A DNA stretch of 64,000 bases from a virus (Duplodnaviria > Heunggongvirae > Uroviricota > Caudoviricetes): positions 859 to 64,858 of the IMG/VR virus record IMGVR_UViG_2788500396_000001. One strand, 5' to 3'. The translations under genes and the position numbers were made by a program. Positions 6,213 to 7,611 of this stretch are shown here, piece by piece (position 1 is the stretch's first letter; every line of letters starts with the position of its first letter). Below the pieces are notes generated by a model. It ran no database searches and was not told where the DNA came from. It saw only the letters and a program-made list of their open reading frames with translations.

Positions 6213-6473
6213 TTATTTTTCCTCCTGTATTGACAGTTCGTCTTTTTTATAGTACCTGCAGAACGATGGCGCTTTGTCAAACATACTTGGGGAAATATTG
6301 TGACATTCACACTTATATTTATAGTTAGGGCCATTTTTCTGTTTGAGGTATTTGCACGAATCACAAGGATAAAATTTGTTTCTCGTTAATACTTTATAGA
6401 ATGCATATGAAGCACACACCGCAGTAACAATTATTGCGACAACTGCGACAATCATTTTACCACCATCTTTCAT
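6213..6473 (-). CDS. small Cys-rich membrane protein
   Basis: TM segment MIVAVVAIIVTAVCASYAFY followed by CDSCKY...KCECH. Start uncertain: ATG at 6473 or 6455. Confidence 0.35.
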   Translation of the reverse strand: MKDGGKMIVAVVAIIVTAVCASYAFYKVLTRNKFYPCDSCKYLKQKNGPNYKYKCECHNISPSMFDKAPSFCRYYKKDELSIQEEK

Positions 6474-7611
6474 CTTCGTTTCTGATTTTGAAAGCATCTC
6501 CATGATAAATAATATCTGGATAATTGCTTGACGATACTTTCATCGCGTACTTATCGATTTCATAAGCATGATATTCCACATTCATAAAGCCCATCTTTTG
6601 TAAACAATATCTTCCAGTTCCTATTCCGTCATACATAGAAAGAACAAGAAGTTGTTCGTTTTTGTGGATGTTTTTTAACCCAGTGCTCAAAAGATGAATT
6701 ATAGCTTCTGCGGTCCATCCATTGCCAAGGCCTCGCAATCTTTGTGTTGTGCTTACTGATGCGGTATAGTTATCGGGCAGTGTTTGTAGGCGTTCTGCCT
6801 CGACCGGCAATAACTTTCTGATAATGTAGTCTCCATCTTGCAACCCAACAGAATGCCATTCTCCATCGACCAGTATTTTCCCGTTCCTAACCTGATAATA
6901 AGGGAATTGATCACGAGATGATCTTGGCGTTGCATATAGACCTGTTTTTGCACCGACTCCACCGCCCTCTCCGCATAGAGTTGTGGACTTTCCATCCGGG
7001 CTATAAACACGATATTGCTTGCTGTTGTGCTTTGCTTGATTTTTTGCATGGTTTTTGATTGTGCCTATTCTTATCGGTTCACACAACACGTTGTATGGCA
7101 CTCCTTTTGCCGTGTTGGCTGTGATGCAGCTACTTTTACCGGACAGTACATCATGGTAATGGCCAAAATCAAAATGATTTCTTCCACCTTTTGTTTGGCG
7201 TACCATATAAGACATTTCTTTATGAGTCAAGATCGGCAAATCTAGTTCGTAAAGAGGTCCAATATCAGGATCTGATGTAACCAAAATATCCTTGAGCAAA
7301 ATCCCCCTGTCTTCTGGCAGGGCATTCTCCCAGTTGCAAACATAAAATCGGTCTCTGCTTTGAGCAGAAACTAAACTGCTATTCATTCTAAAAAGTTTAC
7401 ATTGAAGCTCTTCTTGTATCTGTTGTTTGATGTCAGAAGATGCTGACCAATTATTTTCATATAAGAAGAAGTCTGGCTGGAATCTTTCTTTTGCGATTCG
7501 ATAATTCAGAAATAATTCCCATCCAGCTCCGGATGCGGACGTTTCCCTTCCTTTCGTTTTCGAGATAGACCAGTATGTGCATGGACTTCCTCCAAGCAGG
7601 ATTTTGACCAT
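6457..7611 (-). CDS. DNA (cytosine-5)-methyltransferase, circularly permuted motif order
   Basis: Motif order in the single 384-aa ORF is:
- IV: LLGGSPCTYWS
- VI: FLYENN
- VIII: QSRDRFY
- IX: RKLLPVEAERLQTLPDNYT
- X: GNGWTAEAI
- I: LSMYDGIGTG
- II: YEIDKYA
- III: HGDAF

The RBS AAGGAG lies 7 nt upstream of the ATG. Confidence 0.7.
   Translation of the reverse strand: MVKILLGGSPCTYWSISKTKGRETSASGAGWELFLNYRIAKERFQPDFFLYENNWSASSDIKQQIQEELQCKLFRMNSSLVSAQSRDRFYVCNWENALPEDRGILLKDILVTSDPDIGPLYELDLPILTHKEMSYMVRQTKGGRNHFDFGHYHDVLSGKSSCITANTAKGVPYNVLCEPIRIGTIKNHAKNQAKHNSKQYRVYSPDGKSTTLCGEGGGVGAKTGLYATPRSSRDQFPYYQVRNGKILVDGEWHSVGLQDGDYIIRKLLPVEAERLQTLPDNYTASVSTTQRLRGLGNGWTAEAIIHLLSTGLKNIHKNEQLLVLSMYDGIGTGRYCLQKMGFMNVEYHAYEIDKYAMKVSSSNYPDIIYHGDAFKIRNEDERWW

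Follow-up and report, generated by a model that had tools for sequence, protein, structure and literature searches.

The stretch analysed here, hereafter the window, comprises 64,000 nucleotides (nt) of a large Caudoviricetes phage (IMG/VR record IMGVR_UViG_2788500396_000001, positions 859 to 64,858 of that record), and one of its genes, at 6457-7611 on the minus strand, codes for a member of the DNA cytosine-5 (C5) methyltransferase superfamily in which all ten conserved motifs are present in a circularly permuted order. With a probability of about 85%, we consider the product to be an active, single-chain, S-adenosylmethionine (AdoMet)-dependent DNA C5-methyltransferase, an orphan most likely serving anti-restriction, which descends from the canonical enzymes of gut phages. 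Its catalytic activity, its action on DNA and its role against restriction are what we infer from the sequence.

Motif order and predicted fold of the permuted chain

The first-pass annotation, made from the letters alone, had described one continuous open reading frame (ORF) at 6457-7611 encoding a circularly permuted C5-methyltransferase. The position was right, the strand, which it had left unstated, is minus, and the ORF list gives a complete gene of 384 codons running from an ATG at 7611-7609 to a TAA at 6459-6457. The permutation also held up, the chain being of unit length and arranged as IV-VIII, target-recognition domain (TRD), IX-X and I-III, and each of the peptides quoted for motifs IV, VI, VIII, IX, X and I is present in the order proposed, as are motifs II and III, an agreement far beyond chance.

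Written out in full, the order is IV-VI-VIII, TRD, IX-X, a linker of 7-13 residues, and I-II-III (all coordinates that follow refer to the minus strand). Motif IV, GGSPC (residues 7-11, 7579-7593), aligns with the Pro-Cys motif of DNMT3 and is at least 90% conserved in the clade of permuted relatives described below; Cys11, the predicted catalytic nucleophile, lies on the protein's first beta strand (strand E2-8 in the structural model). Motif VI, FLYENN (residues 49-54, 7450-7467), has E52, N53 and N54 invariant in the clade, Glu52 being the counterpart of the ENV glutamate in the alignment to DNMT3, and motif VIII, QSRDRFY (QxRxR type; residues 84-90, 7342-7362), has Q84, R86 and R88 invariant. 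There follows a variable region that includes the TRD (about residues 110-255, 6847-7284), whose length varies among homologues and which contains a conserved core, QYRVYSPDGKSTTLCGEGGGVGAKTGLY (residues 199-226, 6934-7017), resembling TRD residues 238-267 of M.HhaI (GERIYSTRGIAITLSAYGGGIFAKTGGY). Motif IX, RKLLPVEAERLQTLPDNYT (residues 265-283, 6763-6819), was placed from the clade and PDB alignments. Motif X, GLGNGWTAEAIIHLL (residues 294-308, 6688-6732), has N297 and W299 invariant and a helix at 301-311 in the model; the peptide first quoted for it falls within GLGNGWTAEAI (residues 294-304), with GNGW at 296-299. In C5-methyltransferases the motif X helix completes the AdoMet pocket.

The second part of the chain is attached through the linker STGLKNIHKNEQL (residues 309-321, 6649-6687), delimited by comparison with a canonical relative (L089:1501-2541) and with consensus lines, which connects the equivalent of the canonical C-terminus (..GLKNV*) to that of the canonical N-terminus (MxVLSLFDG..). 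Motif I, LVLSMYDGIGTG (residues 322-333, 6613-6648), is the AdoMet-binding glycine loop, aligned to SLFDGIATG of DNMT3A, with the core YDGIGTG at 327-333 and S325, Y327, D328, G329, I330, T332 and G333 invariant in the clade. Motif II, AYEID (residues 349-353, 6553-6567), has E351 invariant, and in canonical enzymes the acidic residue at this position binds the ribose of AdoMet. Motif III, IIYHGDAF (residues 367-374, 6490-6513), has G371, A373 and F374 invariant and D372 at least 90% conserved; its HGDAF (370-374) is followed by a short helix and the C-terminus, ..KIRNEDERWW*, so that 10 residues separate motif III from the stop codon. Overall, the catalytic and cofactor residues are invariant or at least 90% conserved in 56 aligned clade members (57-85% identity), and the same conservation is found in a set of 201 permuted sequences.

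Sequence searches assign these segments in the same way. Pfam PF00145, the only Pfam family in the protein, matches in two stretches with 57.1 bits (gathering cut-off 22, E 2.6e-15). When phmmer was run against all PDB sequences, the best matches were DNMT3A/B/C (E 1.5e-7 and weaker), aligned out of order: query residues 316-379 correspond to residues 4-68 of the DNMT3A catalytic domain (motifs I-III), residues 4-93 to 78-172 (IV-VIII), and residues 270-309 to 237-278 (IX-X). The plant enzymes DRM2 and NtDRM, themselves permuted, are collinear with query residues 262-344, a segment that spans the X-to-I junction. Furthermore, the C-terminal 58-61 residues are similar to residues 3-63 of canonical phage methyltransferases (40-50% identity, E 1e-12 to 1e-16). 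The C-terminal FxGxG region, for which the first-pass annotation had envisaged an unrelated second domain as the outcome that would overturn its proposal, is motif I, as it aligns with both DNMT3A and the canonical phage N-termini.

The AlphaFold2 model, built on the alignment of 56 homologues, has a predicted template-modelling score (pTM) of 0.81 and a per-residue confidence (pLDDT, predicted local distance difference test) of 88-97 over residues 310-370, the motif I-III segment. Its elements run beta4-alphaD-beta5-alphaE-beta6-beta7, TRD, helices of IX-X, and beta1-alphaA-beta2-alphaB-beta3-alphaC, just as would be expected if a Rossmann-type methyltransferase were cut open between its third and fourth strands. 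The comparison of a predicted structure with M.HhaI that had been suggested at the outset returned M.HhaI (E 3e-12, probability 1.00), DNMT3A/B/C and DRM as the best Foldseek matches. A fold search of BFVD gave no full-length structural match (best template-modelling (TM) score about 0.5). Because the ends of a canonical chain lie adjacent, the permutant should keep both the two-domain fold and the chemistry, and since the ten motifs are contained in one chain, no partner subunit should be needed. By its Pfam score above threshold, its Pro-Cys, ENV-type Glu, QxRxR and AdoMet motifs and its predicted fold, the window protein is thus a member of the DNA cytosine-5 methyltransferase superfamily, with an architecture different from the canonical Dcm/M.HhaI order from I to X.

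Recurrence of the permuted form

A permuted ORF might arise trivially, by mis-assembly or sequencing error that joins the 3' part of one canonical gene to the 5' part of the next in a tandem array. Same-frame tandem canonical methyltransferase genes do exist in phages, and at ORF136-138 of Psychrobacillus phage Perkons the tblastn alignment of our query crosses a gene boundary. The borders of the window gene, however, speak against such a fusion. A strong Shine-Dalgarno site, AAGGAG (7619-7624, minus strand, read from the sequence), is spaced 7 nt from the ATG and shares bases with the stop codon (7623-7625) of the preceding gene (7623-8141), which codes for a SleB-like cell-wall hydrolase (Hydrolase_2) unrelated to methyltransferases and ends 11 nt before the methyltransferase start, leaving no space for an upstream exon with motifs I-III. 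No motifs IV-X occur downstream of the gene, and the identical 384-residue protein is found on an independent Logan assembly contig.

The recurrence of the architecture weighs further against an artefact. All of the 120 best database homologues are permuted (41-98% identity), with motif IV at residue 1-14. A scan of bacteria, with one genome per species, returned a relative in about 143 genomes or loci, of which 80 loci were kept; 79 of their 81 scored ORFs carry all three blocks in permuted order, and in none of the 80 loci does a motif I-III block precede a permuted ORF. The hosts are overwhelmingly Clostridia (Oscillospiraceae, Lachnospiraceae, Acutalibacteraceae, Ruminococcus) and include cultured isolates, among them Butyricicoccus pullicaecorum DSM 23266, Criibacterium bergeronii CCRI-22567, Robinsoniella peoriensis CCUG 48729 and Acutalibacter intestini M00204; these bacterial copies probably belong to prophages. 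In IMG/VR, relatives are present on 387 viral contigs, and in all of the best 80 the match extends collinearly from residue 1 to residue 380. From a library clustered at 50% identity, the best 150 representatives were typed for architecture with segment hidden Markov models: 79 are cleanly permuted, 14 more are permuted with split matches and 18 are canonical, the rest being fragments or special cases such as fused duplicates. The permuted clade thus amounts to at least about 90 clusters at 50% identity. The 657 matches obtained in this library at E<=1e-30 were rejected as a measure of its size, because canonical relatives also score through multi-stretch matches.

Hundreds of independent sequences, isolate genomes included and with identities of 36-98%, therefore begin alike (motif IV at residue 1-15) and end alike (stop 0-20 residues past motif III), and the clade has signatures of its own, YDGIGTGRY, FLYENNKS and GWELF, that are missing in canonical relatives. 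The artefact reading is effectively refuted, and with it the possibility, raised by the first-pass annotation, that resequencing would split the ORF into two genes. The same annotation had called the arrangement rare among prokaryotic enzymes, which is true of the literature, a 2018 survey of REBASE containing no such topology (PMC5944983), but not of absolute numbers, given the about 143 bacterial genomes, 387 IMG/VR contigs and at least about 90 clusters. Some members are already public under generic names, for instance, UWG75371.1 as 'C-5 cytosine-specific DNA methylase', several others are auto-annotated 'DNMT3A' by the Joint Genome Institute (JGI), and the copy of Phage nd4 (WRQ08028.1) is a 'hypothetical protein'.

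Within the clade, the length of the variable region changes freely, and some relatives have two or three TRD-like modules or a C-terminal extension of about 100 residues. The window protein has one HhaI-like TRD core, and two or three TRD-like repeats are present in Phage nd4 WRQ08028, P0036 and P0060. In a subgroup formed by WRQ08028.1 (L001 4001-5677), L007, L009, L016, L041 and L060, two tandem HhaI-like TRD cores are accompanied by an extra 100-125 residues or so after motif III, acidic and of low complexity at first, then helical. Two contigs of Clostridia metagenome-assembled genomes (MAGs) carry tandem permuted genes, each in the block order A-T-B-C (L026 3001-5727 and L081 81-2498); duplication evidently continues after permutation. 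In the MAG copies L036, L056, L064, L077 and L082, the blocks are split by frame breaks and represent pseudogenes or assembly errors.

Origin of the clade and comparison with known permutants

The canonical counterpart of the window protein is exemplified by an ORF of a human-gut Bacteriophage sp. (MT835730, L089:1501-2541), which bears the family signatures GGSPCTYWS, FLYENN and DGDYIIRKLTPVEAERLQTLPDNYT, and whose 120 best homologues are all canonical in order. Such gut-phage enzymes are the nearest canonical sequences to the permuted clade, with about 55% core identity. At the junction, the canonical C-terminus ..GNGWTVDVIAHILGGLKNV* followed by the canonical N-terminus MRVLSLFDGISCG.. corresponds to ..GNGWTAEAIIHLLSTGLKNIHKNEQLLVLSMYDGIGTG.. 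in the window protein; at the breakpoint, the canonical ..HHGNVFDGDFRKFKGYDLLLGGSPC.. corresponds to the window C-terminus ..YHGDAFKIRNEDERWW* and the window N-terminus MVKILLGGSPC... By this alignment, the window protein is a clean, unit-length permutation of the canonical form. Matches in cultured phages were considered as full-length permuted enzymes and rejected, as all of them are canonical in order (Vibrio phages (1.132.O), Pseudoalteromonas H40/1, Psychrobacillus Perkons, Pelagibacter HTVC134P, Roseobacter CRP-603 and MedDCM); they had looked permuted because tblastn pieces were joined out of order or crossed a gene boundary.

For phylogeny, the three conserved blocks were excised, reset in canonical order and used for neighbour-joining trees. 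The split between permuted and canonical sequences was recovered in 100/100 bootstrap replicates when 329 sequences were used and in 77/100 when 424 were used. The canonical enzymes of cultured phages form an outer group (100/100), which places the permuted clade within canonical diversity, as a derived group. A single origin of the permuted clade is supported by these trees, short of proof.

The same family contains forms that recall the steps of a permutation by duplication. In Perkons, ORF136-138 (L004 1288-3933) are three tandem canonical genes, the first two in the same frame and 63 nt apart. The protein P0274 (962 residues) is a fused tandem duplicate, I-X followed by I-X in one chain with both units intact; its cluster is present in two assemblies, on contigs of up to 212 kb, and its second unit groups in the neighbour-joining tree with the canonical sequences that adjoin the permuted clade. 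P0355 (618 residues) is likewise an I-X + I-X duplicate with both units intact, and P0391 (971 residues) is also a fusion of two complete canonical C5-methyltransferases, each with its catalytic motifs intact. The three proteins are candidate living intermediates of permutation by duplication, and together with the Perkons tandem the fused duplicates represent the starting and intermediate states that this model requires. A further protein of the same gut-phage family, P0383 (349 residues), runs from the end of the TRD through IX-X, I-III and IV-VIII to the start of the TRD, so that its breakpoint is M.BssHII-like or within the TRD. It was seen once, on a 3.7-kb contig, and may therefore be a piece of a tandem array.

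We can propose that a canonical gut-phage methyltransferase gene was duplicated in tandem, that both copies were fused in frame, and that loss of motifs I-III from the first copy and of IV-X from the second would then have left the permuted enzyme. The permuted clade is likely to be one clade that arose from canonical gut-phage methyltransferases through duplication, fusion and truncation, the route being our reconstruction.

Permutants of C5-methyltransferases have been considered before. Albert et al. (2018, PMC5944983) screened REBASE for natural ones and identified 27. In every one of these the break lies in the variable region (M.BssHII type), and the authors concluded that nature favours routes leaving both domains intact. 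A weaker binding of AdoMet by permutants such as the III|IV type was also suggested in 2018. The evolved M.HaeIII permutants (Peisajovich et al. 2006, via PMC5944983) start between II and III, in III, or between III and IV, and engineered permutants with a III|IV or adjacent breakpoint, as well as fused dimers, are active (PMC5944983). By the definition given there, the window protein belongs to the III|IV type, which was known until now only from engineered M.HaeIII variants. Text searches of the literature, with REBASE, Peisajovich 2006 and Bujnicki 2002 outside their reach, returned no description of a natural III|IV-permuted C5-methyltransferase. We see an even chance that the clade is the first recognised natural C5-methyltransferase lineage broken in its Rossmann domain (III|IV), arisen once in phages of gut Clostridia by duplication, fusion and truncation, with the I-X + I-X enzymes as its living intermediates; the main uncertainty on novelty lies in the literature and REBASE content beyond text searches.

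With regard to its nearest kin, the window protein shares superfamily, ten motifs, HhaI-like TRD core, orphan status and a like phage context with the canonical phage and prophage group defined by SLFDG(I/M)SCG ... GGSPC(T/Q) ... ENN/ENV, of which the MT835730 ORF, Ruminococcus albus P0209, Pelagibacter phage HTVC134P gp5 and Pseudoalteromonas phage H40/1 gp22 are examples. In the core, the gut enzymes reach about 50-55% identity, against 37-45% for those of marine and soil phages. All of these carry motifs I-III at the N-terminus, whereas the window protein starts at motif IV and has I-III at the C-terminus behind the short linker. The closest artificial parallels are the laboratory permutants, that is, the M.HaeIII variants and the designed cp62M.MpeI/cp58M.SssI ('Type B') with neighbouring types, whose breakpoint coincides with that of the window protein or adjoins it, and whose order is likewise catalytic motifs, TRD, IX-X and then the AdoMet motifs. 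These permutants also follow the same logic of duplication then truncation, but they are artificial constructs of other enzymes, whereas the window protein is natural, conserved and of unit length.

Other permuted or related enzymes differ more clearly. The natural bacterial M.BssHII type ('Type H': M.BssHII, M.Alw26I, M2.Eco31I, M.Esp3I and M2.BsaI; PMC5944983) also has X followed by I in one chain, but it breaks in the variable region, placing IX-X before I-VIII with the domains intact, whereas the break of the window protein is at III|IV inside the catalytic and cofactor domain; the latter is not close to these enzymes by sequence and lies outside Type H. The plant DRM1/DRM2 are also permuted, related to DNMT3 and among the Foldseek matches. 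The likeness to plant DRM drawn in the first-pass annotation is right in so far as both are permuted; however, the eukaryotic, RNA-guided DRM enzymes break at V|VI (VI-X, I-V) and have UBA domains, whereas the window protein breaks at III|IV and lacks UBA domains, and the two permutations are independent events. Class beta amino-methyltransferases (M.PvuII, M.RsrI, M.EcoP15I; N4-cytosine or N6-adenine) have the same linear topology, IV-VIII, TRD, X and I-III, but they use (D/S)PP(Y/F) for methylation of an exocyclic amine, whereas Pro-Cys and C5 chemistry are predicted here, and there is no specific sequence relationship. Finally, DNMT3A/3B/3C, the best matches among solved structures, have a similar motif I (SLFDGIATG against SMYDGIGTG), but their canonical order, very short TRD, eukaryotic regulatory domains and oligomerisation with DNMT3L limit the likeness to the conserved core.

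Predicted function and phage context

If active, the enzyme would work as its canonical relatives do. The chain begins at the beta strand bearing the Pro-Cys (Cys11); the target base would be flipped out, Cys11 would attack C6, and C5 would receive a methyl group from AdoMet, Glu52 and Arg86/Arg88 helping in the reaction. The resemblance of the TRD core QYRVYSPDGKSTTLCGEGGGVGAKTGLY to the DNA-recognition loops of M.HhaI argues for DNA as the substrate without giving the target sequence; compared with the PDB, the excised TRD returned only a marginal match to M.HhaI (E 0.7), a resemblance that carries no prediction of specificity. Methylation of the phage genome at a short specific sequence would allow escape from host restriction. 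No restriction endonuclease lies beside the window gene, whose neighbours are ThyA and DHFR, a small membrane ORF and the SleB-like hydrolase, and no recurrent endonuclease family appears in the 80 genome loci, where the screen covered recurrent families, not single-locus neighbours. Genes that repeatedly accompany the permuted gene in these other genomes code for N6-methyltransferases, PAPS-reductase-like proteins, SSB and lysins. An orphan enzyme, rather than part of a restriction-modification system, is the best-supported reading.

Alternatively, the window protein might be a decayed remnant, either what a tandem array left behind after losing its activity or a paralogue of the DNMT3L or DRM3 kind that binds DNA or regulates without catalysis. 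The engineered M.MpeI permutant cp122, whose site we place at III-IV, is only weakly active (PMC5944983 Table 1), which speaks for this idea. Yet Cys11, Glu52, Arg86, Arg88, the motif I glycines, Glu351, Asp372 and Asn297 are invariant or almost so throughout the clade, whereas paralogues of the DNMT3L and DRM3 type have lost residues of this kind, the predicted model is compact and confident, and a large, diverse clade with rapidly exchanging TRDs is the outcome expected of selection on methylation specificity. We thus regard a decayed remnant as unlikely and retain an active methyltransferase.

As to its surroundings, the gene sits in the nucleotide-metabolism module of a large, tRNA-rich phage with all genes of the window on one strand; this module comprises a ribonucleotide reductase with an intein, a dNMP-kinase-like protein, dihydrofolate reductase (DHFR) and thymidylate synthase. 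An intein containing a homing-endonuclease domain of the LAGLIDADG type (Intein_splicing, LAGLIDADG_3, Hom_end) splits the large subunit of the reductase (938-4348, minus strand, 1136 residues), which ends in a TSCPD domain. The genes for DHFR and thymidylate synthase lie side by side on the minus strand (4895-5461 and 5382-6212). As the Pfam DHFR match begins at residue 30 of the listed ORF, the true DHFR start is probably the internal MNLIALVD, in which case only a few bases of the apparent 80-nt overlap with thyA would remain. Directly downstream of the methyltransferase gene (stop TAA, then A, then ATG) is a small minus-strand ORF (6213-6455, or to 6503) with a predicted membrane helix, IVAVVAIIVTAVCASYAFY, and a Cys-rich tail (CDSCKYL..YKCECH), for which no Pfam or PHROG match was obtained.

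Further away, 12 tRNA genes and a tRNA repair and maturation kit are found at 13118-16469 (minus strand), 8263-10494, 18367-19722, 19697-20773 and 32520-33371, the kit consisting of a kinase-phosphatase-RNA ligase fusion (Pnkp/Rnl-like, 743 residues), a CCA-adding tRNA nucleotidyltransferase, a second nucleotidyltransferase and a Thg1-like tRNA-His guanylyltransferase. Array and kit suggest a large phage countering host defences that target tRNA. Genes of mobile-element type (40043-41161, 41225-42046 and 16528-17751, minus strand) code for a transposase (phrog_506, E 8e-134), an integrase-like protein and an MrpR-like recombinase, whose gene adjoins the tRNA array. A megablast search of window positions 1-25000 against phage records found no relative, only a 162-nt fragment of thyA.

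Dnmt2 illustrates that the C5-methyltransferase fold can act on tRNA, and in a window with a 12-tRNA array, a CCA-adding enzyme, a Thg1-like enzyme and a Pnkp/RNA-ligase repair protein, an RNA substrate such as tRNA might be envisaged instead of DNA. This is less probable still than decay: the TRD core resembles DNA-recognition loops, some relatives have two or three tandem TRD modules as in multispecific phage DNA methyltransferases, and the immediate neighbours in the window are thymidylate synthase and DHFR. Elsewhere the gene adjoins DNA N6-methyltransferases, SSB and PAPS-reductase-like DNA-modification genes, not tRNA genes.

Several observations nevertheless weigh against an active, permuted DNA methyltransferase of canonical gut-phage descent. 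Foldseek gave TM-scores of only about 0.5, a value to be expected of a sequential aligner confronted with a permuted chain, and the packing of the C-terminal segment into the Rossmann sheet rests on the model, in which about 40 TRD residues have a pLDDT below 50. NCBIfam TIGR00675 (dcm) scores 55.3 bits against a cut-off of 100.65 and matches residues 3-298 only, which probably reflects the permutation itself. The neighbour-joining trees used 224 columns and sequence sets picked by similarity to two queries. Observed-to-expected ratios of 4- and 6-mer palindromes in the window are uninformative on the target (GCGC 0.81, GGCC 1.0, CCGG 1.06), and for every member of the clade activity and target are what we infer.

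C5-methyltransferases are a textbook example of how rigidly motif order can be conserved. In each of the few exceptions so far known from nature, the chain is broken between the two structural domains, from which it has been suggested that nature favours domain-preserving routes (PMC5944983). What the sequences described here point to is a natural, conserved clade with its breakpoint in the Rossmann domain and plausible surviving intermediates, the presumed function being ordinary. A large conserved phage clade broken inside the cofactor and catalytic domain would show that the domain-preserving constraint is not absolute, and the canonical sisters and fused duplicates would be natural counterparts of the intermediates of directed evolution. 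If this is true, the clade would offer a natural, testable case of the permutation-by-duplication model, as well as natural, possibly better, scaffolds for split or targeted methyltransferases. Furthermore, as standard full-length models under-score permuted genes (NCBIfam dcm; the 'hypothetical protein' of nd4), phage methylomes may be under-predicted.

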